Positions 7,946 to 23,767 of a DNA stretch of 32,000 bases are shown piece after piece. Every line of letters starts with the position of its first letter. Within the stretch, counting starts at the first letter, position 1. A program made the translations under genes and the position numbers. Below the pieces are notes generated by a model. That model did not search any database and was not told where the DNA came from. It worked only from the letters and a program-made list of their open reading frames with translations. Source of the DNA: Vermiculatibacterium agrestimuris (GTDB taxonomy: Bacteria > Bacillota > Clostridia > Oscillospirales > Oscillospiraceae); assembly GCF_943193085.1 (NCBI RefSeq), contig NZ_CALPCU010000023.1:2442-34441 (forward strand), in the 5' to 3' direction.

Positions 7946-7960
7946 CGTCTTCACCTCCAC

Positions 7961-7989
7961 TTTACTTTTCAAAAGGAATCTTCTATAAT
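7961..7989 (+). promoter_or_regulatory. Candidate promoter for the kinase operon
   Basis: TTTACT, a 17-nt spacer, then a perfect TATAAT (7984-7989), in the divergent intergenic region. Confidence 0.4.
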
Positions 7990-8005
7990 AATTTACAGGA
8001 TTTTT

Positions 8006-10037: not shown

Positions 10038-10074
10038 GCACCCAGAAATCAAGGGATTTCTGGGTGCTTTTTTT
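10038..10074. terminator. Bidirectional intrinsic terminator
   Basis: A perfect 13-bp stem (GCACCCAGAAATC aagg GATTTCTGGGTGC) flanked by A6 and T7. It terminates the + strand operon and, on the minus strand, the tRNA. Confidence 0.85.
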
Positions 10075-10108
10075 GGAGCTGCTGGCCGGACTTGAACCGG
10101 CGACCTGC
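10074..10108 (-). tRNA. 3' fragment (positions 42-76 including CCA) of a disrupted tRNA-Thr(CGU) gene; left junction of the inserted element
   Basis: The reverse complement is GCAGGTCGCCGGTTCAAGTCCGGCCAGCAGCTCCA: T-arm plus 3' acceptor CAGCAGC plus CCA. It pairs with the 5' acceptor GCTGCTG found at 23761-23767. Confidence 0.85.
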
Positions 10109-10111
10109 GGT

Positions 10112-10124
10112 TGTCCGTAAGGGG
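10112..10124. repeat. Left terminal inverted repeat (attP-derived arm) TGTCCGTAAGGGG
   Basis: Perfect reverse complement of 23701-23713. It starts 3 nt inside the shared core. Confidence 0.8.
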
Positions 10125-10235
10125 GCAAACTGAGACGATGCCTAATGGCACGAATCTATCATCATGGGGTTAATGGTTTTTGATGGGCAGAGCTAAAATA
10201 AATATAAGATTCGTCCCCAATTGTACATTATGTGA

Positions 10236-10724
10236 TTAACACACTACAGAGTCGAAAATTTTAATGAGTTCTAAAACATCAAAGTAATAGTTTTTGATAT
10301 CTATGAACGTAGCTGTCGGAGCTTTTCCATGGGCAAAATCATGTCTATTCTGAACTAACGAATTAGAGGCATCAATAATCTTTTGCTTATTTGGGTGTTT
10401 GTTGACCGCACATTTGAAACTTTTTTGCCACTGCTCATCGAACTTGCCCAATAGGCCACACATCATCTCATACTTTGCACTCATAGAACCTTTTCTGACG
10501 GCTGTATCGAGATATGTATCAATTCGACTGTCTGATAATTTGGAAAAGTAATCAACAACAATCGAACGATACACAAACTCAGCCGTTCCAGAGGCTTTTA
10601 TAAGAGCATAGCAGGTGAGGTATCGTATTTGCTTGGACAAAGGAGGCATATCGGCAATAAGCGCATCAATATCATTGATTTCTGTAGTGCACTCGTCAAT
10701 TAAATCTTGCAATTCACTCTTCAT
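10236..10724 (-). CDS. HEPN-domain protein (RiboL-PSP / MAE_28990-like), predicted RNase effector
   Basis: ATG at 10724 preceded by GGAG, overlapping the upstream gene's end; the track's 10751 start is a GTG. An Rx4H HEPN motif lies near the C-terminus (LVQNRHDFAHG). The protein looks all-helical and the gene is AT-rich. Confidence 0.65.
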   Translation of the reverse strand: MKSELQDLIDECTTEINDIDALIADMPPLSKQIRYLTCYALIKASGTAEFVYRSIVVDYFSKLSDSRIDTYLDTAVRKGSMSAKYEMMCGLLGKFDEQWQKSFKCAVNKHPNKQKIIDASNSLVQNRHDFAHGKAPTATFIDIKNYYFDVLELIKIFDSVVC

Positions 10725-11841
10725 TGATGTCAACTCCAAAGAGAATTGCACCAGCCAACTGTATTCTTTTCCTTATGTTATCGATATCAGTTGTTCGTTT
10801 ACTAACTGCTTCCTTAAACTGTTCATTGCTCAATAGAGTTTGATGTTGCTCCAATGACACTGCGCTAATATCATGCCCTTTTTTGCTTATTAGAAAAGCT
10901 GACACCATGATTGCATCAAAGATAGCTGGATGAAATTTCTTGGAAAATCCATTTTTTGCGAGATTTCTAAAGGCCTTTTCTCCAACTGAACTGTTGACTG
11001 CTTCTACCGTGTGCAAAAACTCAGATCTAAATTTGCTTATATCCTCCGCAGTATCATTTCTGTGATTATCCATAAAGGAGTTCAGTGACTTTTTGAGAGA
11101 AATCTGTTTGGCATCACTCTTTAAGATGTCTTCTGTTTTCATTACAAAGAATCTGAGAATATACTCGAGATCTCGCATTCTGCTGTCTGGTACAACTGCT
11201 CCAAACAGTTTTCTCCATGTTGTGTTTTCGTTGAGTTCGAAAAGCAAGGAATTAAATGTTCCTTGATAGACGCAATTGCGAATTTCCTGAGGAGTGAGGC
11301 TGCGGCCGCTTGTATTAATGCGTTCAAAAATTTGATATAAACTCGTATCATCGTTTTCGGGTTTCTTCTGTTCAAAAACAATTGCATGGATTGTGGTACT
11401 CCGAATTTTTCGTTGGTCATCGGTAGACAATTCAACAAAGGATTTGTTGCGCCACCTTTGGTTTATTTTCTCAGAATTAGATAGTTTAAAAGCTTTTCCA
11501 TCTGCAGAAAAAACACCTCTCTTAACATAATCATAAACGGTCATGATCCTTTGATATCCGTCTACAATCAGCTTCTGACTTCCGGACTGGGCAAGAAAAA
11601 TACTTGGGACTGGAAGCCCCAGTAGGATTGACTCAATAAATCTGCTGGCCTCTGTTTTGTCCCATACATATTTGCGCTGCAGTTCGGGTTTCAGTAATTC
11701 ATCGTCTTCATACATTGAAATAAGCTCTCTAAAAGAAAGATCTGCGCCCCAAGATGAGATGTTAAACAGAGAATCATCTGAGTAATCATCTTCGATTTCG
11801 GACTTAATTTCTTCGATATTGGGATTTTCCTTTGCTTCCAT
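10714..11841 (-). CDS. DUF262 (ParB-like / GmrSD N-terminal-type) domain protein without a DUF1524 nuclease domain
   Basis: Motifs ..LQRKYVWDK..ASRFIESILLGLPVPSIFL...LIVDGYQRI (DGQQR variant) and ..FERINTSGRSLTPQEIRN... ATG 11841 has an AAGGAG RBS. The upstream in-frame extension to 12042 lacks an RBS. Confidence 0.75.
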   Translation of the reverse strand: MEAKENPNIEEIKSEIEDDYSDDSLFNISSWGADLSFRELISMYEDDELLKPELQRKYVWDKTEASRFIESILLGLPVPSIFLAQSGSQKLIVDGYQRIMTVYDYVKRGVFSADGKAFKLSNSEKINQRWRNKSFVELSTDDQRKIRSTTIHAIVFEQKKPENDDTSLYQIFERINTSGRSLTPQEIRNCVYQGTFNSLLFELNENTTWRKLFGAVVPDSRMRDLEYILRFFVMKTEDILKSDAKQISLKKSLNSFMDNHRNDTAEDISKFRSEFLHTVEAVNSSVGEKAFRNLAKNGFSKKFHPAIFDAIMVSAFLISKKGHDISAVSLEQHQTLLSNEQFKEAVSKRTTDIDNIRKRIQLAGAILFGVDINEE

Positions 11842-12214
11842 TGTTGAATATCTCCTTACAAAATCATCTGTTGAAAAGTGCTCTCCTTCAATTTGAATAA
11901 TCCTGGTTTCCTTCATGCCAATCCATTTAGGAATACAAACACAAATTATGGCAGTTTTTTTCCAAAGCAGAATTTCATATATATCTGTTGCCCTATCTTT
12001 GCGAATAGGTGTAATACCATGTACCAAGTATTTCATATGCAATATGCACCTCTCTTTGAGTCAGCATACGCATATAAGAGGCTGTTTATCCTCGCTGTTC
12101 CAAAACTATGAAGTACAAAAGTTTGTTTGCTTCGGTCTCTTTTTGAAATGACAAGCCGTAATAGCCACTTATGACCGGATTATCAAAATCGGCTCCATAA
12201 TGTTTTCATTACCG

Positions 12215-12550
12215 CTATAAGTTAATCGGTTCACTAATCTCGGACACAAATAAATCCATCAAATCATGATTGGCACCCACATTGGTGACTTCGAAATGGC
12301 TGACACAGTGCTGGAGCCAAGGGAAGGTATCGCTCATCTCCCGGATCAGATCAAAGATCTCCAGGTCGGTGGTCTTGTGCTTGGAATGATAGCCAGAATA
12401 CTGCTCGTGGGAGAAATCATGGGATGTCAGAAACCGCTGGATCAGGGCATAGGCTCCCTTGGGGTTGGTCTGGGAGTAATGCGTCTTCAAATCTTTGATG
12501 CGAAGGTCAAAATAAAGCGCCTTCAGGTGCTTTGCCTCACGCCGGGTCAT
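12215..12550 (-). CDS. vapD: VapD-like (Cas2-fold) endoribonuclease family protein
   Basis: 111 aa. Aligns by eye with H. influenzae VapD: ..YFDL.IKD...Y......AY..I...L....F...Q.S.Y.........W.....V....V....D... The start overlaps the upstream stop (TGATGA). Confidence 0.65.
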   Translation of the reverse strand: MTRREAKHLKALYFDLRIKDLKTHYSQTNPKGAYALIQRFLTSHDFSHEQYSGYHSKHKTTDLEIFDLIREMSDTFPWLQHCVSHFEVTNVGANHDLMDLFVSEISEPINL

Positions 12551-12885
12551 CAGGCTGCGCTCTCTCGGCCAGCGTAGTGAAGCAGTACATCCTCCACGGA
12601 AAAGTCATTTTCGTCCTCGCCGTCATCGCTGTTGTACCACAGCCACTTTGCCACATAGGGCATGAACCAATCCTTGTCTTTCAAAGTGGTGATAAGCCGT
12701 CCAAAGATGCCGTAGTCCTTGGCGGCGCCAGTGCCATAGTAGCAGACAGTGCCATCGGACTGGGTTTCCTTGCGGAAACCATATTTCCCAAAGGCGTTGT
12801 CCACAGAGGACTGAATCGTCTGGGGCGTATATTTTTGTGCTTGTTCAATGCGCTCAATGTCCAATTTCATTTCCAGTTTCAGCAT
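12550..12885 (-). CDS. Hypothetical 111-aa acidic-tailed protein, partner of the VapD-like gene (candidate antitoxin, VapX position)
   Basis: ATG 12885 with an AGGAGG RBS 8 nt upstream. Its stop overlaps the vapD-like start. I recognise no family. Confidence 0.6.
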   Translation of the reverse strand: MLKLEMKLDIERIEQAQKYTPQTIQSSVDNAFGKYGFRKETQSDGTVCYYGTGAAKDYGIFGRLITTLKDKDWFMPYVAKWLWYNSDDGEDENDFSVEDVLLHYAGRESAA

Positions 12886-12964
12886 ATCACAGCACCTCCT
12901 GAAAAGATTGACCACCCTTATTATATCAGGGTGGTCGAAATAGTGCAATCTTTTTCATGCTTTA

Positions 12965-14638
12965 TTAGGTAATAATCGCCATAGGCTTAGCATCATCTGA
13001 ACTTTCGGCAGGGGAGATGGCCCCATTCAGCATGACCGCCGGGTCGATGTACCCAATGAACTTATAGTAAATATCTACCTGCTGAGTGATGGCACCGTCA
13101 TCGCTGCGTTCCTTTTCGTGCACTACGATCTTTTCAATAAGCTCATTGAGGATGCGGGCGTTGAGTTCTTTGAGGTCGGTATATTGCCTGACCAGCGGGA
13201 GGAAAGCCTCCACATCGTCATAGATCTGTTCGCTGGCGGAGATGGCTTCCGCCAGCGTTTTTTGTGCTTCCAGAAGGGCAACCCGCTCCTGCTCGTAGCT
13301 GGGCATCATGGACTGATACCGCTCCTCGGTGATCTTTTCCAGCGCCCGGTCCTCATAGAGCTTATTGGAGACCTTCTCCAACTCGCCCAGGCGTTTCTCC
13401 ACTCGTTTGAGCTCCCTCCTTTGTCGCTCGGTGTTCTGCTGTTGCTGGGCTTGCTTGGCGGCCAGGAGCATCTGGGCGTAGTCCAGCTCCGCCACGGTTG
13501 CCCACTGGGCGTTGCGGCGGATATCCTCCAGCACCAGGGTGTTGAGCGTTTTCCAGCCGATGGCGTGGGAGGTGCAACGGCTTTTGCCGTAGTTTTTGTA
13601 GACCCAGCAGGAGAAGCCGGTGTAGCGGCCTCGTTTGCCGTCATAGCTAAGATTGAGGGAAGAGCCGCAGTCGGCGCACTTGACCAGCCCGGCGAAGGGC
13701 TGGACCTCATGGCTGCCGTTCTCCCGCCGTCGGGCTTTCATCATCTGGTGGACGGTGTCCCACAGCTCCTGGGTGACCAGGGGTTCATGGGTGTTCTCGG
13801 TGATGATCCATTCCTCCTCCGGGGCGGGGATGCGAGTCTTGTCAAAGAAACCTTTGAGTTTGGTGCGCCCGAACACGAGCTGCCCCAGGTAGACCCGGTT
13901 ATTGAGGATGGCCCGGATGGAGGTGGCGTGCCAATCATAGGGCTTACGCCAGTACTCGCTTTTGAAGTAGTCGGGGTTATTCTGGTTGAAGTATGCCTGG
14001 GGATTGAGGATGCCACGCTCCCGGAGAATCTTGGTCATCCGCACATAGCCCACGCCCTCGGCGAACATCTGGAAGATGTCCCGCACCACATCGGCGGCGG
14101 GTGGGTCTACGATGAGGTGATGCCGGTCGGCGGGGTCTTTGACATAGCCGAAGGGGGCGTGGCTGCCCAGATACATTCCGGCCTTGGCTCTGGCCCGATG
14201 GGCGGCCTTGGTCTTACTGGAAGCCTGCCGGGCATAGAAGGAGTTGATCACATTGGTAAAGGGGAGCACCAGGCTGTCCAGGCCCTTTTGGGAGTCGATG
14301 TTCTCCGCCAGAGAGAGGAACCGGATGCCCTTTTCCTCAAAGTAGTGCTCGATGTACATCCCCATCTCGGCGTACTCTCGACCGAACCGGGAGAGGTCTT
14401 TGACGATAACCGTGTTGATGCGCCCAGTCTCGATGTCGTCGATCATCCGCTTGAAGTCAGGCCGCTCGAAGTTGGTGCCGCTCCAGCCATCGTCACAGTA
14501 GTACCCACCGATGGTGATGTGCTGTTCCTCACAGTATTGGGTGAGGATGGCCTTTTGGGTCTGGATGCTCCCGGATTCCCCAACGCTGCCGTCGTCCTGA
14601 CTGAGCCGACAGTAGATGGCGGCAATTTCTTTGCTCAT
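12965..14638 (-). CDS. Large serine recombinase (TnpX/TndX-like, with a DUF4368-like C-terminus)
   Basis: ATG 14638 with an AGGAGG RBS. N-terminal resolvase catalytic domain (AAIYCRLSQDD...), recombinase domain, Cys cluster (CADCGSSL...FSCWVYKNYGKSRCTSH), a coiled coil, and a C-terminal ..ELNARILNELIEKIVVHE.. motif. Confidence 0.9.
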   Translation of the reverse strand: MSKEIAAIYCRLSQDDGSVGESGSIQTQKAILTQYCEEQHITIGGYYCDDGWSGTNFERPDFKRMIDDIETGRINTVIVKDLSRFGREYAEMGMYIEHYFEEKGIRFLSLAENIDSQKGLDSLVLPFTNVINSFYARQASSKTKAAHRARAKAGMYLGSHAPFGYVKDPADRHHLIVDPPAADVVRDIFQMFAEGVGYVRMTKILRERGILNPQAYFNQNNPDYFKSEYWRKPYDWHATSIRAILNNRVYLGQLVFGRTKLKGFFDKTRIPAPEEEWIITENTHEPLVTQELWDTVHQMMKARRRENGSHEVQPFAGLVKCADCGSSLNLSYDGKRGRYTGFSCWVYKNYGKSRCTSHAIGWKTLNTLVLEDIRRNAQWATVAELDYAQMLLAAKQAQQQQNTERQRRELKRVEKRLGELEKVSNKLYEDRALEKITEERYQSMMPSYEQERVALLEAQKTLAEAISASEQIYDDVEAFLPLVRQYTDLKELNARILNELIEKIVVHEKERSDDGAITQQVDIYYKFIGYIDPAVMLNGAISPAESSDDAKPMAIIT

Positions 14639-14670
14639 GCTTGATTCCTCCTTAGCCACAGACAATACCC

Positions 14671-14874
14671 CTAATCCTTGCCCAAAGCTATACCAGAACC
14701 CACCAAAGAATCCTTCGTAACTTTGGGCGGAATAGACGAGGTGAGGGAAGCGGTGATGAGGTCGCCCATCTTCTGAAACACATCCCTGCTGCCGCCGTAG
14801 TAGCTGGTGGTGATATACCGAACGCCGCGGATGGTCTGGCTGTGGGCGATCATGCTGTCCTCGAATAGAAACAT
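14671..14874 (-). CDS. Hypothetical 67-aa protein immediately upstream of the recombinase
   Basis: AGGAGG RBS 9 nt upstream of the ATG. GC3-rich codons. It ends 33 nt before the recombinase start. Confidence 0.5.
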   Translation of the reverse strand: MFLFEDSMIAHSQTIRGVRYITTSYYGGSRDVFQKMGDLITASLTSSIPPKVTKDSLVGSGIALGKD

Positions 14875-14889
14875 CGGCTGGTACCTCCT

Positions 14890-15003
14890 TTACATTTTCT
14901 GCTGCCAGGTTTGCTGTTCTTCGTGGTCATCTGCCTTGTGGCCCATAGAAATTTTCTTCTTCCGCTCTTGGGAGAGGGCCTTGCGGTCGTCGTAGCCAGT
15001 CAT
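14890..15003 (-). CDS. Possible 37-aa basic/acidic peptide, or the genuine C-terminal tail of the relaxase (same frame)
   Basis: ATG at 15003 overlaps the TGA of the nested ORF. GC3 bias returns to this frame (MTGYDDRKALSQERKKKISMGHKADDHEEQQTWQQKM). Confidence 0.3.
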   Translation of the reverse strand: MTGYDDRKALSQERKKKISMGHKADDHEEQQTWQQKM

Positions 15004-16170
15004 GGATGCGGCTGGAGCAAGGCGCTGGCTACGCTCCAGAGCATGGCCCAGAGCGGCCACAGAGCGTACAATCCCACCAGGATCGGGATGGCCCACAGCC
15101 ATGCCAGACTGGGTGTGGGCAGGTGTAGCTTCGGCAGAGAAGGCCGCCAGCCTTTCTTCCTCCCAGCCTGTTCCTGTCGCTCCAGCAGCTGATGGATCGT
15201 TGCCGCTTCCTTGGTCAGCGCCTCCGCCTGGGCATGCACTGCCTGCATGGTAGCGAGGCTGTTCTTCAATATGTCGGACTGGCTCGCCGTCAGACGGTAC
15301 AGGGTGCTGAGGATCGCCAACAGGTCGTTCCATTCCTCCCCCATAGGATGTCGCTCTGGCGGCAAGTTCCTCTCCTTCAATTCTTCGATGGAGCATTTCT
15401 GCTCGGATCCTAAACTCACGCTCCATGACCTCCTTTCGGTATTTGTCCTCGTGGAGACGGTTATCCCGGCACTTCTTCCCTTTGGGAGTAGTATAGGTGA
15501 TGGCCTGCCGGGTGGGTTCCCACCGCACCTGGTAGCCCCGCTGTTCCATCTCCCGGATGAAGTCCTCCCGGCGTTTAGCCCTCCTCATACACAGGTCGAT
15601 GGTGTTCATGAGCTGGAATTTCCAACTCTCACCCCGGACCGCCGAGCGGTACTCACCGGGGCGCATCTTCTTATCCTGGACGTGCCTTTTGGGTGACTCC
15701 AGTACTTGCAGACCGTGGGTGCGACATATCTGGTCGCTGATCTGGCGCTGCCGTTGGAGGTCCGCGGCGTTTTGGTGCAGCTTGCGGCCATCCTTCCAGC
15801 TGACGCTGTTGACGATGAGGTGGTTGTGGAGGTGGTCTGCGTCCACATGGGTGGCCACCACCACTTCAAACTCCGGGAACAGCCGTTGGGCCAACTCCAG
15901 CCCGATGGTGTGGACTTCTTCTGGGGTGACGTCTTCCGCTGGAGAGAAGGACTGGACGAACTGATAGAACATCCTGCCATCGGATTTCTGGAACCGCCGC
16001 TTGGTGGTCATCATCTCATCGTAGGCAGACTGGGCAACGCAGTTGTGACCAGTCACCAGTCGGTGGTCTTTCCATGCGGTTTTCTTCTCCTGCGCCGCAT
16101 AGGCCAGCACCCGATGTAGCGAGCTACCGCTTTGAGCCTTGTTTTTGATCGCGGTGAAGGTTGCCATCAT
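14890..16170 (-). CDS. Relaxase/mobilization nuclease (MobA/VirD2 family); the relaxase domain is the first ~290 aa and the C-terminal ~140 codons have a non-coding-like signature
   Basis: 3-His motif HVDADHLHNHLIVNSV and an N-terminal Tyr region. AGGAGG RBS, with an ATGA overlap onto the mobC stop. Downstream of about 15420 the GC3 bias moves to another frame (see the nested ORF). Confidence 0.85.
   Translation of the reverse strand: MMATFTAIKNKAQSGSSLHRVLAYAAQEKKTAWKDHRLVTGHNCVAQSAYDEMMTTKRRFQKSDGRMFYQFVQSFSPAEDVTPEEVHTIGLELAQRLFPEFEVVVATHVDADHLHNHLIVNSVSWKDGRKLHQNAADLQRQRQISDQICRTHGLQVLESPKRHVQDKKMRPGEYRSAVRGESWKFQLMNTIDLCMRRAKRREDFIREMEQRGYQVRWEPTRQAITYTTPKGKKCRDNRLHEDKYRKEVMEREFRIRAEMLHRRIEGEELAARATSYGGGMERPVGDPQHPVPSDGEPVRHIEEQPRYHAGSACPGGGADQGSGNDPSAAGATGTGWEEERLAAFSAEATPAHTQSGMAVGHPDPGGIVRSVAALGHALERSQRLAPAASMTGYDDRKALSQERKKKISMGHKADDHEEQQTWQQKM
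15000..15419 (-). CDS. Nested out-of-frame gene inside the relaxase ORF: 139-aa coiled-coil protein with a C-terminal Trp-rich TM helix (MobB-like position)
   Basis: GTG start with AAGGAGG 9 nt upstream. In sampled stretches GC3 is about 17 of 20 codons in this frame versus about 9 of 20 in the relaxase frame. The sequence is protein-like (..EEWNDLLAILSTLYRLTASQSDILKNSLATMQAVHAQAEAL.., LAWLWAIPILVGLYALWPLWAMLW). Its stop overlaps the next ATG (ATGA). Confidence 0.6.
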   Translation of the reverse strand: MSLGSEQKCSIEELKERNLPPERHPMGEEWNDLLAILSTLYRLTASQSDILKNSLATMQAVHAQAEALTKEAATIHQLLERQEQAGRKKGWRPSLPKLHLPTPSLAWLWAIPILVGLYALWPLWAMLWSVASALLQPHP

Positions 16171-16487
16171 CGCACCTCCTTGGAAAGTTGGCTGATCTGC
16201 TGGTAGAGCTTGGCATAGCCATCCACCAGGTCATCACCTCGGAGGATTTTCAACTTGCCCATGTTGGCCAGAGTGGTGAGCTGGTTTAGGTTCCGCCCCT
16301 GAGCCTTCAACTCGCTCAGCACAGCATCCAGGCCATCCACCCGGACGATCTCTTTGCCCAACGCACAGACGGTCATGTAGTCGGTGACCGTCATCCCGGC
16401 ACCCCGGGCCAGGTGTTGGACGAGACTTTTCATGGTGGGCGTCATTCGGATGGTGACGATCTCGGTCTTGCGTTTTTCTCTGCGCAT
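16167..16487 (-). CDS. mobC: MobC-family relaxosome accessory protein
   Basis: ATG 16487 after GGGGGAGAAAGGA. RHH-like N-terminus (..IVTIRMTPTMKSLVQHLA..) and a MobC motif (..LKAQGRNLNQLTTLAN..). The stop overlaps the relaxase start. Confidence 0.8.
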   Translation of the reverse strand: MRREKRKTEIVTIRMTPTMKSLVQHLARGAGMTVTDYMTVCALGKEIVRVDGLDAVLSELKAQGRNLNQLTTLANMGKLKILRGDDLVDGYAKLYQQISQLSKEVR

Positions 16488-16561
16488 GTTTTTCCTTTCT
16501 CCCCCTCTGGGGGCTGGGGCACGGGGCAGCGCCCCGACCGCATCCGGCGTATAGCCGGGGG

Positions 16562-17619
16562 CTATGCTTGCCTCACCCAAGGGTGAGCGTCCGCATCCCT
16601 GACTTGAGTCCCAGGGGCGATAGGGTCAACGGTTCCGGGGGCTTGTTCAGCGTCACTTTCGGCACGGTGGAGCTCGATGAGCCGCTTGCCGTTACTCCTG
16701 CGGACGATGGCGGTGATGCCTTGTTCCGTAAGTGCCGCAGCGCTTTGGAGGATCTTCCGGGAGACGGTCTTGGGCGTGACGCCCTCCGCACCGTCAGGGT
16801 CGATACGCTTGGCCAACTCGGTGGGAGTGCCGATCCAGCTTGCTTTATTCCGCAGAAATTCAGAGAGGAGAAACACGACCCGCTCCTCCAGAAGCAGTGG
16901 CTGAGTGTAGGAGTCCGATACCAGCTCCCATACGTTTTCGGCGTTCCGCTCCAGCCCCATCTCCCGGTACTCAATGTCCCGGCCTACACAGTAGAGGGTG
17001 GCTCTGCGGCTGCCCCGCCGATCCTCCACCAGCGTGAAGCTGGAATCCACCGCGCCGCTGATGGCGGTGGTGCCGGAGATGCGGCTGAACACATCCTCGG
17101 CGGGTTCCTTGCGTAGATGATGGATGAGCAGGACGGCGATGCCGTGAGCGTCGGCCAGCCGCTTGAGGACAGAGAGGTCTCGGTAGTCATTGGCATAGAG
17201 TTGGTTCCCCGGATCATCTGGAGGGTGTCGATGATGACCAGGACGGTGTCCGGGTGTTCTGCAAGGAAGGCTTTGAGTTGCTGTTCCAGTCCACGGCCCA
17301 GCAGAGCGGCCTCGGTGGAGAAGTGAACGGTGGGCGGCGCGTCCTCGGTAATGTCCAGCAGCCGGTTTTGGATACGGAGCTGGGAGTCCTCCAGACAGAG
17401 ATAGAGGGTAGTGCCCTGCTTCGCTGGCCTGCCCCAGACGCTTTCGCCTTTGGCGACCTGTACGCTGAGCCACAGGGCCAGCCAGGACTTGCCCACCTTG
17501 GGCGACCCGGCCAGGATGTGGAGTCCCTGGGAGAGCAGCGTGTCCACGATAAAGGGCAGCGGCACGAAGGGCTTGGCCATCAGTGTGACGCCGTCAATGG
17601 TGTTGAGCTTTTGATTCAA
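16562..17619 (-). pseudogene. RepA-like AAA (AAA_25-type) ATPase with a C-terminal winged-helix-like region, interrupted by a 1-nt frameshift
   Basis: TTG 17619 with an AGGAGG RBS 7 nt upstream. Walker A is GSPKVGKS. The N-terminal part (frame of ORF 16984..17763) and the C-terminal part (frame of ORF 16562..17473) join at the G4 run (plus-strand CCCC, 17207-17210). One extra G gives ..IIDTLQMIRGNQLYANDYRDL... Total length is 1058 nt, that is 3n+2. Confidence 0.75.
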
Positions 17620-17643
17620 GAGAAAACCTCCTTTGCGATGTGG

Positions 17644-17672
17644 TTGGCATTGGCCTCTGCCTGTGTTAGAAT
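17644..17672 (+). promoter_or_regulatory. Strong sigma-70-type promoter for the + strand operon of the element
   Basis: TTGGCA, a 17-nt spacer, then TGtTAGAAT (extended -10). It lies about 85 nt upstream of the 17757 ATG. Confidence 0.5.
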
Positions 17673-17756
17673 ACAGAGGAGGAATGCTTTTTGAAATCTG
17701 AAAGTGATGTTGGCGATTTTTCAAAAGTTCGCTTGCAGACAAAAAGGAGGGACGAT

Positions 17757-18767
17757 ATGGCATCGGAATATGGGCTGTATCTTTCTCTGCTCCCGGATGG
17801 GCAGATAAAAAGAGACCTCACCGGGTCGGCCGGCAAGGTCCCCTTGGAGGATACAACGATCCAGGATGAGTTGATTTTATTTTCTGAGTTGAACTTTGAG
17901 CCGTATGCTCTGGTGGTAGACCTGGTCCGCAATTGTGCGGGGAGCATTATGGTGCAGGATGAAGGTCATTATGGAGAGGTCGACATGAAGGAGTTTCAGT
18001 TCATGGCGGACACCGTGATCGACCTGGTGACCACCATGGAGAAAGAGTCTCCTCTGTATGGCACGCTGCTTCGCACCCAGATCGAAGATCAGATCACGAC
18101 GGACGATGGAACTGCCATGTATCCGATTCGCACCGGGCAGGAGCTGGTTGCTCTGTTGACCGGAGTGATGCAGTTTCAGTTCGTGGTCAATGAGGTGCTG
18201 CATGACCTTTGCGAGAAGACACCGCTTGAACCAAAGAAGTACGAGGGCCTGTGGGAGATGCCGGTGACGGAGGTCTTAACACTGGAGGGGGATGGTTTGA
18301 CTACACGATACCATTTCCGTTCGGCGGTGGACTACTACCATTTTCTTCTTCTGCATTTTGTGGCGGACAAGCCAAATGTGTCTCTGTGCCAGTGCTGCGG
18401 CAGATATTTTATTCCCAAGACGAAAAAGAAAACGCTGTACTGTGACCGTATTCTGAAGGATGGCAAGACTTGTAAGGAGTGGGGGCCGATCCTGAAGCAC
18501 AAGCTGGCTGCTCGGAGGAACGAGGTCATCGAGGCTTTTGACCGGGCCAAGCGGAAAATGTACAAGCGCTACGAGCGGGCGGCAAATAAGATCAACCAGA
18601 AGCCCTCGGAGAAGGATCTGAGCTACGCTGAATACTATGAGTGGCTGGACAGGGCAACCAAGGCGAGAGATGATTATTTGGAGGGGAAAATCACAGTGGA
18701 AGACTGTTTGCGACAAATTGGGGAAGAAAAAGATGAAGATGGAAACTTTATCGAACTTATGGTATAA
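17757..18767 (+). CDS. Hypothetical 336-aa protein with a Cys cluster (CQCCGRYF...YCDR...TCKEW) and a basic helical C-terminus
   Basis: AAAAGGAGGG RBS 6 nt upstream of the ATG. Composition (about 55% GC in a sampled line) resembles the element core. It is divergent from the ATPase/mob operon. Confidence 0.7.
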   Translation: MASEYGLYLSLLPDGQIKRDLTGSAGKVPLEDTTIQDELILFSELNFEPYALVVDLVRNCAGSIMVQDEGHYGEVDMKEFQFMADTVIDLVTTMEKESPLYGTLLRTQIEDQITTDDGTAMYPIRTGQELVALLTGVMQFQFVVNEVLHDLCEKTPLEPKKYEGLWEMPVTEVLTLEGDGLTTRYHFRSAVDYYHFLLLHFVADKPNVSLCQCCGRYFIPKTKKKTLYCDRILKDGKTCKEWGPILKHKLAARRNEVIEAFDRAKRKMYKRYERAANKINQKPSEKDLSYAEYYEWLDRATKARDDYLEGKITVEDCLRQIGEEKDEDGNFIELMV

Positions 18768-18856
18768 TAGCTTGGCAAGTAGAATTACAAAATATGAACC
18801 TGCACCATTGATGCGGAGGGTCAAATCTTTGCAATGAAAAATTGGGGGACGAGTTG

Positions 18857-21800
18857 ATGGATAACAAAAAATTGGATCGTTGGGCTGAACTGCTTTTAGA
18901 TACGGGTAAGCGCAACAATCTGATCAACTTTAGAGATACAAAGGCATCCACTGTTGAAGTTGTTGCTCCGGCCCCTGATACCATATGGGAGAAGGCCAAT
19001 GGTTCTGGGGACTTGGAGGTCTATGATCCTGGCCTCATTACCTTTGACGATGAGGACGAACAGCGTTCTCCTGAAGACGGCGAAAGAGAGACAAAACTAA
19101 GCCGTGAAGATTATCTTCAAACCTACAGCCCTATGTTGAAAAAAGCAAGCCAAATGTTGCTATACAGCCTTGGACCAAGCCCCATTCGCACTTTACAGAA
19201 TATTGACAAGAAGGCTCAATCTGCTATTGAGGAAACTGGCGTTAATGTCGCATATATGGCATTTGGCTTTATTCACTGGAAGGAGAGCAATTCTTCTCAA
19301 TATGAATATAGGGCACCTATTCTTTTGGCGCCGGTTCAATTTAGCAGGGAAACTGCCATTGCACCCTACCATATTGTTGTATCTTCCGATGAAATAGCAG
19401 TAAACCCCACATTCTCCTATAGGATGAACGCTGAACACGGGATTCGCCTTCCAGAGTATGAGGACGAGGGCCTTGACAGCTATTTGGATAAGGTTGCAGA
19501 GCTGGTCGGAAAATTGGGCTGGGCTGTGACGAGAGAGTGTAAAATCGGGCTGTTTTCCTTCCTGAAAATGAATATGTATCGCGATCTGAAGGATCATGCA
19601 GCTGCCATCTTGAAGAATAGAAATATTAGGACCTTGCTTGGCGAGCAGGTTGAGCGTGACAACGCCGAAAGTAGTTTTGATGAAGAAGCACTGGACTATG
19701 GAGGTGCCTTGATCCAACTTCATAGTGTCGTCGATGCGGACTCCAGCCAAATCGAGGCCATCGAGATGGCGAAATCTGGAGTGAGCTTTGTCTTGCAGGG
19801 CCCTCCGGGGACTGGAAAAAGCCAAACTATCACAAATATTATTGCTGAGTGCTTGAACGACGGGAAGAAGGTTTTGTTCGTTTCTGAAAAGCAGGCTGCT
19901 TTAACTGTTGTGTATGACAAGCTGAGGCAGGCTGGCTTGAATGATTTCTGCCTGGAACTTCATAGTTATAAGGCAAATCGGAAAGGCGTAATTGCCGAGC
20001 TGTGCCGTACATTACGCCTGGACAAAACAACCGTTTCAACCAAGGCAGATGAAGAAGTTACGACCAAAGAGAAGGCACAAAGGCAACTTGACCTTTATGC
20101 CGAGGAGCTACATAAGCAAAGACCGGGAATCGAAAGAAGCCTTTATCAGCTCTATGAGGAACACTCCGCCTGTCGACATGTCCCGGAACTCGAATTTCAG
20201 GTTCCTGCGATTGAGGACAAGGGTGCAAACTATTTAACTTCGGCGATTGAATTTTTGGAGCAGTATGTAGATTATCTCCCTTCAGTGGGCTATGACTACC
20301 ACAAAAACCCGTGGTATGGATATAAGAACCAAGATACCTCCTACCAAACCACAATTCAAGTTAAGAGTGATTTGCAGGAATCGATAAAGTTTTTTCAAAC
20401 TCTCATTTTGCTTTCTGACGAACTGGCCACCAAGTATGGTGTAGCATTGGAAGGGATTGACAGCGCACGATATTGGCGAGATTTCTTGTCATTTGTAGTG
20501 ACCTCAGATATCATTACACCTGCATTCTTGAAAGACCCCAATCTGGTAGATGCCCTGCGCAGGATGGCGGCCTTAAGTGCAGAGATCCACGAGATCCAAA
20601 CGAGTCTTGATGCTGTATATGGTCAGGACATTTACCAAATTGATGGAGCGGAATACTGTAAAAAGCTCACAACACAGTTTGGTAGTTTCTTTTCTCGCCT
20701 ATTCAATCAGGAATATCGGCAGACAGTTGCGAATCTCCAGGTTTGCAAGCGGAGCGATGGCAAACTGTCATATCAGGATGCCGTAGCCCTTACCCGGAAA
20801 CTTTCGGAATATCAGGAAAAGACCCAAGCGTTTGAAGCACTTGAGGTCTCGGCCAAGGGAGGCCTGGGACCGGGATATACCGGCCTTCAGGGAGACTGGG
20901 CGCACGTTGAAGAGCAACTTGACCAGATGGGGGCCATCATAAATGGAAAGCACGACTATGGTCGGTTGGCAGAGCTTTCTCTGTCGGAATTTCAGGCCGA
21001 ACAGCCGACTTTTGAAAATCTTGCGAAGAGGCTTTCTGCTTGCCTTGATCTGTTTGGCGACTGGTATGATCGGCTTGCGGCAGCGTTTGATAACGAGATT
21101 TTTGATTTGCGTACTGTCCAGGATCAAGAGGCTCTTGCCAAGCTCGAAGCCTGTCACTGCGATGCCGATAAAATTGATAACTGGTGTAGATTCCGCACGT
21201 TGTTGGCTCAACTGCGAGATGTTGGATTGCTGTCCTTTGTTGACTATGTGATCTCGCAAAATTATGAGGCGAAGAATATGGTCACCGCATATAAGCGAGC
21301 ATTTTTGCATCAATGGATCGACTGCATTATTGCCACTACACCTGCCTTGGCTGATTTCAATCGGGTGATTCAGGACAGAGCTGTGGTTACATTCTCACAA
21401 AAAGACACTACGCAGTTCGACATTAGCAAAGCACAAATCCGCCAGAAGCTCTCAGCCCAAAGACCGTCTCTTGATATGGTTTCATCTGGTAGTGCTGTTT
21501 CTATTTTGCTCCGTGAGGGAGAGAAGAAAAGACGGCAAAAGAATATCCGTACCTTGCTGGCGGAGACCGGGGAGCTTATCCAGATCATAAAGCCTTGCTT
21601 TATGATGTCGCCATTGAGCGTCAGTACGTTTCTGGATCCAGATATCATACATTTTGATACAGTGATTTTTGACGAGGCGTCGCAGATATTCCCCCAGGAT
21701 GCGGTGGGCGCTATATATCGCGCTAAACAGCTCATCGTGGTGGGCGATTCCAAGCAAATGCCGCCCAGCAACTTTTTCTCTGCAACTGTGGAGGATGACT

Positions 21801-23473
21801 CACCAGATGAAGAGATTGGCGATGTGACGGATTTTGAATCCATCCTTGATATGTGCTCCACCACTATGCCGCAAATGCGCTTGCGGTGGCATTATCGTAG
21901 CCGGTATGAGCAGCTGATTGCTTTCTCTAACCGCAATTTTTATGACGGGGATTTGGTTACATTTCCCTCCGCAACAGCAGATACACATGGCGTGGGTGTA
22001 GACTATTACCATGTGGATGGAATATTTGACCGCAAAAGTCATACAAACCGAAAGGAAGCAGAATTTGTTGTTGATCTCATTTTTAAGCATATTCAAGAGT
22101 ATCCGGGCAGAAGCCTTGGCGTAGTGGCGTTCAGCGTAGCACAGCAGGAACTGATCGATAACCTCCTGTCAAAGCGACGTCAAGAAAATCCGGATATGGA
22201 GGGCTTTTTCAAAGGAGAGCGCAAGGAACCATTTTTTATCAAAAACCTTGAAACGGTGCAGGGCGATGAACGGGATACTATCATATTCAGCGTTGCATAT
22301 GGCATTGACTCTCAAGGGCGCCTGCTCCATAATTTTGGCCCTCTGAATCGGGTCGGCGGTGAACGCCGACTGAATGTTGCGGTCACCCGAGCAAAGTGCA
22401 ATGTGCAGTTGGTATCCTCCATGCATTATACGGACATTGACCTGAGCCGTACATCGTCAACTGGAGTTACATTGTTGCGGGCGTATCTGGACTATGCCGA
22501 GAATGGCACTATTGCCTTGGAGCGAGCGGTCTCAATCAGCCCTTTTGAACAATTTGATTCCGAGTTTGAAATGGAAGTTTGCGATTTCCTGCGGGACAAT
22601 GGATTTGAAGTAGATATGCAGGTCGGTTGTTCTGGATTCCGCATAGATCTTGGTTTACGTCGGTCAGGAAGTTCGGATTATGTCTTGGCGATTGAATGTG
22701 ATGGAGCTACCTATCATTCATCAAAAAATGCCCGTGATCGGGATCGCCTCCGTCAAGAGATCTTGGAGCGTATGGGCTGGAAATTTTACCGCATTTGGTC
22801 CACGGACTGGTTCAAAAACAAGAGAGTGGAAAAGGAGCGCTTGTTGGGGGCGGCAAAACAGGCGGTAAAGGCTCCCACCTCAGTAGTCCAGCCTATGCTG
22901 GATATAGAAGAATCCGCCGCTGAGATTTTTGAGACCGTATCAACTGCCAATGATTTTAAGTTTCAACAATACAAAATAGCCGATATCCCCGCTCTATCCA
23001 AACGGTATTTACCAAATAACTTTAAGGGTATGGTGAAGGCCATTTTGGAAATAGAGGCCCCTCTTTCAGAGGATCTGCTTTTAAAGCGCACGGTTATATA
23101 CTTTGGCCGAGAGAAAGTGACGAGCGTTGTTCAACGGACCTACGAGCAACTAATGCAAGGGTGTCGTCGGGATGGGATCATTCGTCGGGATGGCTTTTTA
23201 TATCTGGAGGGGCAGAGTGAGTGCCCGTTCCGAACACCTTCTAACGATTTGAAGCGTGACATCAAAGATATCTGCTTGGAGGAGTTAGCTTCTGGGCTGC
23301 TCGAACTGCTTCGTCAAAATGTAACGGCAGATAAGACTGGGCTCTATCACGCCTTTGCGGGGCAGTGCGGTTGCAGTCGGGTTGGCAAAGCTATTAATGA
23401 GCGGTTTGACGATGCACTTGGACTGTTAAAGGACAAAATAAATGTGGACGGAATTATGCTTTCGATTAAATAG
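18857..23473 (+). CDS. DUF4011 / SF1 (Upf1/DNA2-like) helicase / Vsr-MTES_1575-like endonuclease / DUF3320 giant protein (Hhe-like candidate defence gene)
   Basis: 1538 aa. N-terminal DUF4011-like region (..LLDTGKRNNLINF..). Walker A GPPGTGKSQTI and motif II VIFDEASQ. Also WHYRSR, VQGDERD and RLNVAVTRAK. A C-terminal nuclease-like block follows (..GFRIDLGL...YVLAIECDGATYHSSKNARDRDRLRQEILERMGWKFYRIWSTDW..), then a DUF3320-like tail. A sampled line gives about 42% GC. Confidence 0.85.
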   Translation: MDNKKLDRWAELLLDTGKRNNLINFRDTKASTVEVVAPAPDTIWEKANGSGDLEVYDPGLITFDDEDEQRSPEDGERETKLSREDYLQTYSPMLKKASQMLLYSLGPSPIRTLQNIDKKAQSAIEETGVNVAYMAFGFIHWKESNSSQYEYRAPILLAPVQFSRETAIAPYHIVVSSDEIAVNPTFSYRMNAEHGIRLPEYEDEGLDSYLDKVAELVGKLGWAVTRECKIGLFSFLKMNMYRDLKDHAAAILKNRNIRTLLGEQVERDNAESSFDEEALDYGGALIQLHSVVDADSSQIEAIEMAKSGVSFVLQGPPGTGKSQTITNIIAECLNDGKKVLFVSEKQAALTVVYDKLRQAGLNDFCLELHSYKANRKGVIAELCRTLRLDKTTVSTKADEEVTTKEKAQRQLDLYAEELHKQRPGIERSLYQLYEEHSACRHVPELEFQVPAIEDKGANYLTSAIEFLEQYVDYLPSVGYDYHKNPWYGYKNQDTSYQTTIQVKSDLQESIKFFQTLILLSDELATKYGVALEGIDSARYWRDFLSFVVTSDIITPAFLKDPNLVDALRRMAALSAEIHEIQTSLDAVYGQDIYQIDGAEYCKKLTTQFGSFFSRLFNQEYRQTVANLQVCKRSDGKLSYQDAVALTRKLSEYQEKTQAFEALEVSAKGGLGPGYTGLQGDWAHVEEQLDQMGAIINGKHDYGRLAELSLSEFQAEQPTFENLAKRLSACLDLFGDWYDRLAAAFDNEIFDLRTVQDQEALAKLEACHCDADKIDNWCRFRTLLAQLRDVGLLSFVDYVISQNYEAKNMVTAYKRAFLHQWIDCIIATTPALADFNRVIQDRAVVTFSQKDTTQFDISKAQIRQKLSAQRPSLDMVSSGSAVSILLREGEKKRRQKNIRTLLAETGELIQIIKPCFMMSPLSVSTFLDPDIIHFDTVIFDEASQIFPQDAVGAIYRAKQLIVVGDSKQMPPSNFFSATVEDDSPDEEIGDVTDFESILDMCSTTMPQMRLRWHYRSRYEQLIAFSNRNFYDGDLVTFPSATADTHGVGVDYYHVDGIFDRKSHTNRKEAEFVVDLIFKHIQEYPGRSLGVVAFSVAQQELIDNLLSKRRQENPDMEGFFKGERKEPFFIKNLETVQGDERDTIIFSVAYGIDSQGRLLHNFGPLNRVGGERRLNVAVTRAKCNVQLVSSMHYTDIDLSRTSSTGVTLLRAYLDYAENGTIALERAVSISPFEQFDSEFEMEVCDFLRDNGFEVDMQVGCSGFRIDLGLRRSGSSDYVLAIECDGATYHSSKNARDRDRLRQEILERMGWKFYRIWSTDWFKNKRVEKERLLGAAKQAVKAPTSVVQPMLDIEESAAEIFETVSTANDFKFQQYKIADIPALSKRYLPNNFKGMVKAILEIEAPLSEDLLLKRTVIYFGREKVTSVVQRTYEQLMQGCRRDGIIRRDGFLYLEGQSECPFRTPSNDLKRDIKDICLEELASGLLELLRQNVTADKTGLYHAFAGQCGCSRVGKAINERFDDALGLLKDKINVDGIMLSIK

Positions 23474-23542
23474 AAAATTGTAAAATCCCTTTTTCTCCTT
23501 GGGGAGAATATGATTTACCATCGTTGAGTTTTCCAAAACAAA

Positions 23543-23589
23543 GCATTCCCGCTTTTCGAGGATATGAAAAGCGGGAATGCTCTATTTTT
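23543..23589 (+). terminator. Intrinsic terminator after the helicase gene
   Basis: A 14-bp stem (GCATTCCCGCTTTT ... AAAAGCGGGAATGC) followed by tctaTTTTT. Confidence 0.8.
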
Positions 23590-23664
23590 GGAGCTACTGG
23601 CCGGACTTGAACCGGCGACCTGCTGATTACGAATCAGCTGCTCTACCAACTGAGCCACAGTAGC
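23589..23664 (-). tRNA. Complete tRNA-Thr (anticodon CGU), element-borne
   Basis: The reverse complement is GCTACTG TG GCTC AGTTGGTA GAGC A GCTGA TTCGTAA TCAGC AGGTC GCCGG TTCAAGT CCGGC CAGTAGC T CCA. This is a 76-nt perfect cloverleaf with an encoded CCA. Confidence 0.9.
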
Positions 23665-23700
23665 GTATAAAATTGTTGAATTTGCGGAGTGGAGGAATGT

Positions 23701-23713
23701 CCCCTTACGGACA
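23701..23713. repeat. Right terminal inverted repeat (attP-derived arm) CCCCTTACGGACA
   Basis: Perfect reverse complement of 10112-10124. It ends 6 nt inside the shared core. Confidence 0.8.
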
Positions 23714-23719
23714 GCCACT

Positions 23720-23767
23720 GACCTGCTGATTACGAATCAGCTGCTCTACCAACTGAGCCACAGCAGC
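23720..23767 (-). tRNA. 5' fragment (positions 1-48) of the disrupted host tRNA-Thr(CGU) gene; right junction
   Basis: The reverse complement is GCTGCTGTGGCTCAGTTGGTAGAGCAGCTGATTCGTAATCAGCAGGTC. It is identical to the element tRNA except position 4, and it then breaks off into element sequence. Confidence 0.85.

Follow-up and report, generated by a model that had tools for sequence, protein, structure and literature searches.

A divergent PD-T4-2-like DUF262-HEPN gene pair as a candidate anti-phage module of a mobilizable element

The DUF262-HEPN gene pair described here lies in a window of 32,000 nucleotides, the whole stretch of DNA analysed. It is a diverged representative of PD-T4-2, a two-gene system with existing experimental validation, and not a new system type. 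At a probability of roughly 70%, the pair is read as an anti-phage module of two genes, PD-T4-2-like in type, that travels as cargo of a mobilizable element and works through a stepwise mechanism in which the DUF262 protein (A) licenses the HEPN protein (B). The domains favour this reading, as do catalytic motifs that are intact, the strict coupling of A and B across phyla, the mobile and defence context and the homology to PD-T4-2. PD-T4-2 is listed as ‘DUF262, HEPN’ by Vassallo 2022 (PMC9519451, Table S1). Its protection against T4 was reported both from transplant into E. coli K-12 and from deletion in the native strain, ECOR65 (PMC9519451). The original prediction had regarded DUF262-HEPN pairs as experimentally uncharacterised, a view that PD-T4-2, as a validated system of this kind, overturns.

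Layout of the gene pair

Both genes are encoded on the minus strand. In the ORF list, the DUF262 gene occupies a frame at 10714..12042 and the HEPN gene a frame at 10236..10751. The core of gene A begins at the ATG at 11841 (10714..11841; 375 aa) and its homologues are 372-375 aa long. A Shine-Dalgarno sequence, AAGGAGA, can be read on the same strand 9 nt upstream of this ATG (11851..11857). Gene B runs from the ATG at 10724 (10236..10724; 162 aa), a start supported by its family of 462 clusters (50% identity), in which nearly every length falls within 160-168 aa. The end of gene A and the beginning of gene B share 11 nt, read from the sequence as ATGAAGAGTGA (10714..10724, minus strand). This overlap, which had already been noted, points to translational coupling of the two genes, and by their layout A and B are a translationally coupled operon.

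The GC content across 10-12 kb is 0.378-0.395 (~38%), the minimum of the window, against ~0.60 (~60%) in the flanks; the region is thus the most AT-rich part of the window, as had been claimed. A simple scan returned no convincing promoter or terminator for the operon, and no sigma-70-like promoter was detected upstream of gene A. The two small ORFs upstream (12215-12948) were considered as further components and rejected. They occur solely in copies of the same element and are therefore placed outside the DUF262-HEPN module.

The carrier element

The pair stands at the left end of an integrative mobilizable element of ~13.6 kb (10109..23719), recognised from Pfam, PADLOC and tRNA calls. The element encodes a large serine recombinase (12965-14665, minus strand) and a MobA/VirD2 relaxase (14890-16170, minus strand). 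A second defence gene, for a PDC-S37/Hhe-like helicase-nuclease (18842-23473, plus strand), was identified by PADLOC. Terminal inverted repeats are found at 10109-10124 and 23701-23716, flanked by the two halves of a host tRNA (10074-10108 and 23720-23767). The element splits the host tRNA-Thr gene and brings its own replacement copy, a tRNA-Thr found by the tRNA calls at 23589-23664 on the minus strand. In two other loci (L004 and L005), the same element borders on the 3′ end of another host tRNA. The pair had been placed at the far left of the element, and the boundary at about 10109, 127 nt past the HEPN stop, agrees with this. The content and boundaries of the element also support the description of the module as mobile-element cargo.

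The DUF262 protein

The product of gene A matches the Pfam family GmrSD_N/DUF262 with E=1e-26, above the gathering threshold, and has no other Pfam domain. A DUF1524 nuclease was sought with Pfam in A, B and the scanned ORFs of the element and its flanks, and none was found. The assignment of A as a DUF262 protein without a fused DUF1524 is thereby borne out. The DGYQR and FERINTSG motifs reported for A are both present, the former as residues 94-98 (codons 11562-11548, minus strand, from the sequence). The protein consists of the DUF262 domain, a ParB/Srx-fold NTPase domain spanning residues ~39-192, followed by a ParBDB-like helical domain at its C-terminus. Alignments of 80 A and 79 B proteins, which include the real PD-T4-2, show that P52, Q55, R56, W60, D94, G95, Q97, R98, R174 and N176 are invariant across the A proteins.

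A total of 2968 homologues of A were collected at E<=0.001. Two PADLOC models match A over their full length: NsnA (E=4e-70; 235 bits) and PD-T4-2_A (E=1.6e-51; 173.5 bits), the latter spanning profile positions 16-360 of 363. The PADLOC models for HEC-05 (BrxU-like), HEC-06 and SspE give weak matches confined to the N-terminal part. No NCBIfam family matches A or B, and a PDB sequence search with the profiles of both families gave no match. In the AF2 model of A, the N-domain has a pLDDT below 50, the input alignment being too shallow and too similar. A fold search with this low-confidence model returned nothing significant, with BrxU and a DndBCDE-DndI chain at E~0.7.

The ATG at 11841 had been taken as the start of the DUF262 gene. 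It stands as a canonical start with a Shine-Dalgarno sequence, but it is probably not the end of the gene, which appears to continue a further 195 nt to an ATG at 12036. The long form from this ATG is 440 aa. The open frame, the homologues and the codon-level conservation all point to an in-frame N-terminal extension of 65 codons (11842..12036, minus strand). Upstream of the canonical Met, 24 of 59 related loci have 60 or more codons free of stops in frame 0, and over the same stretch in these loci frames +1 and +2 contain means of 5.2 and 7.9 stops. The extension is conserved at the amino-acid level (pN<pS in 15/15 pairs), and many homologues of A have been annotated by gene callers at 437-440 aa. 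The extension thus appears to be coding and probably forms an extra domain, small and variable. Pfam found no match in eight N-terminal extension sequences. The canonical Shine-Dalgarno and internal ATG are kept within the long form of the gene, and a Shine-Dalgarno of the AGGAG/GGAGG type is present at this position in most of the extension-bearing loci and in some that are extension-free.

The HEPN protein

The product of gene B matches Pfam HEPN_RiboL-PSP (PF18735) with E=7.2e-14, above the gathering score, with HEPN_MAE_28990 as the second match. Its NRHDFAH motif supplies R127-x4-H132, with the codons of the two residues read from the sequence at 10346-10344 and 10331-10329 (minus strand). 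An RNxFAHG motif is conserved in the family, and E49, L123, R127 and H132 are invariant across 79 B proteins. The AF2 model is all-alpha, with seven helices and a mean pLDDT of 94.6. The Pfam match, the motif and the model uphold the identification of B as a 162-aa all-helical HEPN protein with an Rx4H motif. B has the all-alpha core and Rx4-6H motif of the HEPN superfamily, and its fold search was not significant: no PDB hit had E<0.9, and the HEPN structures 4nqf, 7ae8 and 1ufb appeared only at E>2. B is predicted to be an RNase effector in the form of a minimal HEPN.

Relationship to PD-T4-2

HHpred assigned the A protein of PD-T4-2 to PF03235 and the B protein to PF18735 and PF18737 (PMC9519451). 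These are the families of the window pair, and this forms the link between the two systems. A search for PD-T4-2 by its cluster accession failed, RCO39066.1 being absent from the listing; the real locus was recovered through the 50-nt lambda-red primer arms in the primer table of the paper. E. coli 2009C-3133 (L098:6001-7603) carries the same sequence as the PD-T4-2 of ECOR65. Between the window A protein and PD-T4-2A, identity over 343 aa comes to 27% (E=3e-29). Pairwise BLASTP detects no similarity between B and PD-T4-2B. At the profile level, hhalign matches the B family to PD-T4-2B with 87% probability (E=3.9e-6), aligning GTIE with GWIE and RNxFAHG with RNAAAHT. Real PD-T4-2B itself matches PF18735 with E=2.3e-7. 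The PADLOC model PD-T4-2_B scores weakly on the window B (E=0.009; 14 bits) against 213 bits for real PD-T4-2B, and is matched by 96 of 115 representatives of the B family.

Both pairs comprise two genes in the same order, abutting or overlapping and of similar size (364+167 aa for PD-T4-2, 375+162 aa in the window). As in PD-T4-2, A comes first and B follows on the same strand in a self-contained two-gene operon. In each, A is a DUF262 protein (PF03235) without DUF1524, B is a PF18735 protein with PF18737 as the second match, and the DGxQR and Rx4H residues are common to both. Both are also carried by mobile elements, PD-T4-2 by a P4-like satellite and the window pair by the mobilizable element. 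The differences lie in the PADLOC scores for A and B (538/213 bits for real PD-T4-2, 173.5/14 bits for the window), in the 65-aa N-terminal extension that window A probably has, and in the host, a high-GC gut Bacillota-type genome in which a mobilizable element with a serine recombinase carries the pair. Because A is only 27% identical to PD-T4-2A and B matches at the profile level only, the window pair is, from sequence comparison, a member of a distinct, widespread clade.

Members of this clade also occur in E. coli, as a pair in a P2-like prophage (WP_000132387.1 and WP_157903713.1; L093 and L095) and a pair on a 3.9-kb plasmid (L094). Their A proteins are 54-55% identical to that of the window and their B proteins 31% identical over the full length. 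The operon structure is the same, and the location, between cI and int, is a hotspot for mobile elements. Unlike the window pair, they have a HEPN protein with a ~45-aa C-terminal tail (211 aa) and an A protein without the N-terminal extension. No experimental test of the P2-prophage or 3.9-kb plasmid variant was found. The E. coli DUF262-HEPN pairs of the P2 prophage, small plasmids, IncX1 and IncF were each considered as PD-T4-2 itself and were ruled out by their PADLOC scores.

Related loci

The DUF262 alignment alone retrieved 80 loci in genomes of many phyla. A HEPN ORF lies directly downstream of the DUF262 gene in 79 of these, on the same strand and with its start a few nucleotides from, or overlapping, the DUF262 stop; the sole exception is a contig end. 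There is no third conserved gene, any other neighbouring family being present in at most 9 of the 80 loci, which indicates that the two genes together form the functional unit. Three loci (L040, L089 and L092) combine a split DUF262 ORF with an intact HEPN ORF, though assembly errors are possible there.

The neighbours vary; the commonest across the 80 loci are Dcm/Vsr, HsdM/HsdS of type I R-M systems, a ResIII-PLD nuclease, BREX PglZ, a Schlafen-like ATPase and integrases. A setting among defence genes, as had been expected of such a module, is borne out, with R-M genes, BREX PglZ and integrases recurring. Other copies are found after type I hsdM-hsdS, between cI and int of a P2-like prophage, on 3.9-kb plasmids and on IncX1 plasmids. 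The median identity to the window among 76 loci is 73% for the N-domain of A, 40% for its C-domain and 30.5% for HEPN. These values fit a conserved enzymatic core joined to fast-evolving recognition and effector parts.

Alternative explanations

The pair could instead be an addiction module of the toxin-antitoxin (TA) kind, in which HEPN is the toxin, DUF262 the neutraliser and phage defence secondary to stabilising the element or plasmid. HEPN RNases act as toxins in HEPN-MNT systems according to the literature, and the HepT/MntA pair resembles that of the window in having a small all-helical Rx4H HEPN in a two-gene overlapping operon, HepT being among the weak fold matches. Overlapping genes are found in many TA pairs. 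A place right at the terminus of a mobilizable element would also suit such a role, as would the copies on 3.9-kb E. coli plasmids with little else and those adjoining rep on IncX1 plasmids. The partner in the window, however, is a ParB-fold NTPase and not a minimal nucleotidyltransferase (Pfam finds no MNT domain in A), and the fold match has E>2. A putative antitoxin of 375-440 aa would be an enzyme, and its NTPase domain is conserved to a much greater degree than the ‘toxin’ (median identity 73% against 30.5%), the opposite of what is expected of a simple binder. The three loci with a split DUF262 would be lethal under a strict TA model, assembly errors aside, and phage defence is what has been validated for the closest relative with an experimental test (PMC9519451). 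TA and defence roles are not mutually exclusive, and a module that is primarily addictive is judged unlikely.

DUF262 proteins also form part of the GmrSD, BrxU and SspE enzymes, which share with A an N-terminal DUF262 NTPase bearing DGxQR. A DNA-targeting mode like that of type IV restriction, in which the ParB-like domain of A nicks or cuts phage DNA and HEPN is a non-catalytic adaptor, would accord with a HEPN survey that counts ParB-fold domains among R-M endoDNase domains, and with neighbours that are mostly R-M genes. In GmrSD, BrxU and SspE, however, cutting is performed by the DUF1524 His-Me nuclease, which the window pair lacks, and DUF262 is the NTPase/sensor part; the output predicted for the pair is RNA cleavage by a separate protein. 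The R and H of HEPN are invariant in 79/79 partners, which argues for a catalytic RNase, and the restriction mode is considered very unlikely. DUF262 without DUF1524 has also been treated for Menshen and Dazbog (PMC10952713, PMC12065111). Menshen (NsnABC) has an NsnA-like sensor, defined as ParB-DUF262 with the helical DNA-binding domain ParBDB and in some cases with variable extra N-terminal domains, and effectors that are mostly predicted RNases (PMC12065111). The pair might be a remnant or minimal form of it, with A as NsnA, the ABC-ATPase and effector elsewhere and HEPN an accessory, given that NsnA is the best PADLOC match of A and outscores PD-T4-2_A. A is NsnA-like, but the NsnA model is a broad one, giving 197-229 bits to real PD-T4-2A and to four further E. 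coli DUF262 proteins that have HEPN partners. Directly downstream of A lies HEPN and then the element end, not an NsnB ABC-ATPase/DUF3696, and in 79/80 loci HEPN takes this place. Among the ten element and flanking ORFs, PADLOC matches no NsnB or NsnC, Pfam no ABC-ATPase, and no ORF resembles the NsnC effector (inPIN plus nuclease); the effector is a separate minimal HEPN. The Menshen paper itself classes PD-T4-2 as a separate DUF262 system, and a remnant or minimal form of Menshen is the most improbable of these readings.

Proposed mechanism

The PD-T4-2-type reading would proceed in steps. A and B would be produced from one translationally coupled transcript and would assemble with the HEPN dimer kept inactive. 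On infection, A would recognise a phage nucleic-acid cue, for which the modified DNA recognised by GmrSD, BrxU and SspE is the precedent. Binding or hydrolysis of NTP at the DGxQR pocket would then change the conformation of A, and this switch would free or activate the HEPN active site (R127/H132). HEPN would cut cellular and/or phage RNA and phage production would stop, probably with growth arrest.

For the whole family, we infer that an NTPase/DNA sensor licenses an RNase, and likewise what triggers the module, that A and B form a complex, which RNA is cut and that infection ends abortively. A literature search found no mechanistic study of PD-T4-2 or of any DUF262-HEPN pair, and no statement of abortive infection as the mode of PD-T4-2. 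The coupling of modified-DNA or NTP sensing to RNA cleavage and abortive infection is the working hypothesis of the field.

It is a long shot, though a conceivable one, that the clade has a biology of its own beyond that of PD-T4-2, in the form of co-assembling isoforms or of NTPase-domain chemistry that licenses HEPN. The ParB-like domain keeps its median identity of 73% from Bacillota to Bacteroidota and Proteobacteria while the C-domain and HEPN evolve fast. Unrelated N-terminal domains have been added in ~40% of loci, with the internal ribosome-binding site and start codon kept. Two isoforms could co-assemble, the long one a sensor and the short one the core. The NTPase step could also act on a universal ligand or on HEPN, for example as a CTP-type switch or a nucleotide-dependent modification. 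If true, a chemical step of the NTPase domain would amount to a novel means of licensing a HEPN RNase.

Significance

In annotation, ‘PD-T4-2-like system’ is the fitting label for the pair, and neither ‘type IV restriction enzyme’ nor ‘Menshen’. Defence-finder models may miss this clade because its HEPN component scores marginally on them. The pair extends PD-T4-2-type defence beyond E. coli to a clade spread by mobile elements among gut Bacillota, Bacteroidota, Proteobacteria and other phyla. The clade offers handles on mechanism in its highly conserved NTPase core and in a minimal 162-aa effector with a confident model. Further handles are naturally occurring variants, some with added N-terminal domains and some lacking them, and its easily tested E. 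coli relatives at 54% identity.

The DUF262-HEPN gene pair

The DUF262 gene (A) is carried on the minus strand by an ORF at 10714..12042, and the HEPN gene (B) by an ORF at 10236..10751 on the same strand. The canonical start of A, the ATG at 11841, is preceded by the Shine-Dalgarno sequence AAGGAGA at a distance of 9 nt and gives a protein of 375 aa; homologues annotated without an extension measure 372-375 aa. Gene B encodes 162 aa from ATG 10724, a length that is near-uniform among its 120 closest database relatives and ranges from 160 to 168 aa in the wider HEPN family. The overlap between the genes is 11 nt, ATGAAGAGTGA. The GC content of 0.38-0.40 over 10-12 kb is the window minimum, with flanks of ~0.60, so the original prediction of two overlapping genes in the lowest-GC part of the window was borne out.

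The sole Pfam match of A is GmrSD_N/DUF262 (E=1e-26), while B matches HEPN_RiboL-PSP (E=7e-14), with HEPN_MAE_28990 second. These HMM searches uphold both domain assignments and the predicted lack of a DUF1524 domain in A. The motifs quoted in the prediction are present and conserved. Residues P52, Q55, R56, W60, D94, G95, Q97, R98, R174 and N176 are invariant in 80 related A proteins, as are E49, L123, R127 and H132 in the 79 partner proteins of B. The AlphaFold2 model of B consists of seven helices (mean pLDDT 94.6), as expected of the all-helical partner proposed. The N-domain of A was poorly modelled, and the alignment behind the model was shallow. Fold searches with the two models returned nothing significant, and a sequence search found no solved structures of relatives for either family.

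Relationship to PD-T4-2 and other DUF262 systems

The association of these genes was noted in earlier comparative genomics, as the prediction had stated; Anantharaman et al. 2013 described RiboL-PSP and MAE_28990 HEPN genes ‘in operon with ParB’. The accompanying claim that the pair had not been characterised experimentally is wrong. The PD-T4-2 system of Vassallo et al. 2022 is listed as ‘DUF262, HEPN’, and its HHpred tables give PF03235 for protein A and PF18735 with PF18737 for protein B (PMC9519451). These are the families obtained for the window proteins. PD-T4-2 protected E. coli K-12 against T4, and deletion of the native system from ECOR65 restored T4 plaquing on that strain (PMC9519451). 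The DUF262 systems without DUF1524 named in a review are PD-T4-2, Menshen and Dazbog, with PF18735 given for PD-T4-2.

For direct comparison, the 50 nt at each end of PD-T4-2 were taken from the lambda-red deletion primers in the PD-T4-2 paper. Both arms occur exactly in E. coli 2009C-3133 (L098:6001-6050 and 7554-7603), at a locus where DUF262 and HEPN genes lie between psu and int in a P4-like satellite adjoining ssrA. The PADLOC PD-T4-2_A and PD-T4-2_B models score 538 and 213 bits on this pair, and 173.5 and 14 bits on the window pair. Window A and PD-T4-2A share 27% identity across 343 aligned residues (E=3e-29). BLAST found no pairwise similarity between window B and PD-T4-2B. A HEPN-family profile of 115 representatives does match PD-T4-2B (87% probability, E=3.9e-6), aligning GTIE with GWIE and RNxFAHG with RNAAAHT, and 96 of the 115 representatives match PADLOC PD-T4-2_B. 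With 27% identity in A and a likeness of B at the profile level only, the window pair appears from these comparisons to have the system type and architecture of PD-T4-2, yet to form a distinct, distant clade. The domains had been read correctly, and the pair ranks as a divergent member of a system type that is already known and validated by experiment.

Two other classifications were considered. Menshen is suggested by the PADLOC search with A, in which NsnA (E=4e-70) and PD-T4-2_A (E=1.6e-51) both matched over the full length. The NsnA model is broad: it also gives 197-229 bits for the genuine PD-T4-2A and for four further DUF262 proteins from E. coli that have HEPN partners. Menshen also requires the NsnB ABC-ATPase and the NsnC effector downstream of NsnA (PMC12065111); neither was found among the ten element and flanking ORFs scanned or in the related loci, and this assignment was rejected. 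A type IV enzyme resembling GmrSD, BrxU or SspE, which share the DUF262 domain, was likewise rejected as the required DUF1524 nuclease is absent.

Distribution and genomic setting

When one genome of each species was scanned with an alignment of DUF262 alone, 80 loci were obtained, spread over Bacillota, Bacteroidota, Proteobacteria, Verrucomicrobia, Patescibacteria, Acidobacteria and Desulfobacterota. In 79/80, an ORF that fits the profile of the HEPN family begins a few nt at most from the DUF262 stop, on the same strand; the remaining locus stops at a contig edge. Every other neighbouring protein family occurs in at most 9/80 loci, and the DUF262-HEPN pair itself is the unit.

The recurrent neighbours are tyrosine integrases (9/80 loci), Dcm methylases (8/80), Vsr and a ResIII-PLD-DUF3427 helicase-nuclease (6/80 each), and HsdS, HsdM, an Eco57I-like methylase, PglZ and a Schlafen-like ATPase (3/80 each). 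At least one is present in 25 loci. On metagenome contigs the pair is found 3′ of type I hsdM-hsdS, elsewhere 3′ of an AAA/S8-peptidase pair, and in one further setting amid IS elements and restriction-modification debris. Judged by neighbour counts, the setting is that of defence islands and mobile elements.

The DUF262 gene is divided into two ORFs beside an intact HEPN ORF at three loci (L040:5983-7100, L089:5650-7150 and L092:5980-7111). If these are not assembly errors, they argue against DUF262 as an essential antitoxin.

The N-terminal extension of gene A

The frame of gene A remains open to ATG 12036, giving 440 aa with an extension at 11842-12036 (minus strand). At least 60 open frame-0 codons precede the canonical Met in 24/59 related loci, all from Bacillota-type genomes. 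Over the same 180 nt the other two frames of these loci contain a mean of 5.2 and 7.9 stops; where the extension is lacking, frame 0 has 4.6. The extensions, 65-130 aa long, belong to several sequence types unrelated to one another; a Pfam search with eight of them gave no match, and pN<pS in 15/15 pairs within the type of the window. Since an AGGAG/GGAGG-type Shine-Dalgarno sequence is retained a few nt before the canonical internal ATG in most extension-bearing loci, long and short isoforms of A may both be made. The variable extensions resemble the variable N-terminal sensor domains of type II Menshen NsnA (PMC12065111).

The carrier element

The carrier of the pair, an integrative mobilizable element of ~13.6 kb (about 10109-23719), encodes a MobA/VirD2 relaxase along with a large serine recombinase. 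Its insertion has divided a tRNA-Thr(CGT) gene of the host into a 5′ part at 23720-23767 and a 3′ part at 10074-10108, whose acceptor halves match (GCTGCTG/CAGCAGC). The 16-nt terminal inverted repeats are GGTTGTCCGTAAGGGG at 10109-10124 and its reverse complement at 23701-23716. The element itself carries an intact tRNA-Thr(CGT) at 23589-23664, apparently a replacement for the gene split by insertion. On two other metagenome contigs (L004, L005) the same element adjoins the tRNA 3′ end of a different host. The GC content of the DUF262-HEPN cassette, 38% against 46-59% in the remainder of the element, suggests separate acquisition.

A putative second defence cargo is the 1543-aa DUF4011/SF1-helicase/MTES_1575 REase protein at 18842-23473 (+), which matches the PADLOC candidate family PDC-S37 over the full length (1457 bits) and Hhe partially; a DUF6076 protein (17691-18767) is encoded 5′ of it. 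Between the serine recombinase and DUF262 genes lie two small minus-strand ORFs of 111 and 132 aa (12215-12550 and 12550-12948). Neither matches a Pfam or PADLOC model, and both occur only in copies of the same element (L004, L005), being absent beside other DUF262-HEPN pairs. By eye, the 111-aa protein has a VapD/Cas2-like look.

In the adjoining host DNA, a protein with a Ser/Thr protein kinase domain (7565-8758, +) is followed by a zinc-ribbon and beta-helix protein (8760-10019, +). The former matches many PADLOC PD-T4-6 models, with E values as low as 4e-29, probably owing to similarity shared by kinases in general.

Proposed mechanism and E. coli relatives

DUF262 is described as a ParB/Srx-fold NTPase binding nucleotide phosphates through its DGxQR motif, and in GmrSD, BrxU and SspE it links modified-DNA recognition to nuclease activation. 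HEPN domains are metal-independent, dimeric RNases with a composite Rx4-6H site, DARNA being a recent example. Based on this literature and the strict translational coupling of the genes, A would keep the HEPN dimer inactive and sense a phage nucleic-acid cue. NTP binding or hydrolysis by A would then release or activate the RNase, leading to translation arrest. Across 76 loci from several phyla, the A N-domain has a median identity of 73% to that of the window, the A C-domain 40% and HEPN 30.5%, and codons of the A N-domain show pN of 0.035-0.09 with saturated pS. This pattern is in keeping with a sensor-NTPase acting on a HEPN RNase.

Closer relatives than PD-T4-2 are present in E. coli. P2-like prophages carry a pair between cI and int (54% identity in A, 31% in B), and 3.9-kb plasmids carry one with 55% identity in A. 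Such tiny plasmids of E. coli and Klebsiella, among them the E. coli plasmid pLR-27_3 (L094, 3948 bp), contain hardly anything besides a pair of the window clade, part of rep and a gene for a VbhA-family antitoxin. More distant pairs adjoin rep on IncX1 plasmids, or occur on IncF plasmids, where the HEPN is of MAE_28990 type. The clade and its E. coli relatives would offer convenient material for studying how the PD-T4-2 family as a whole works.
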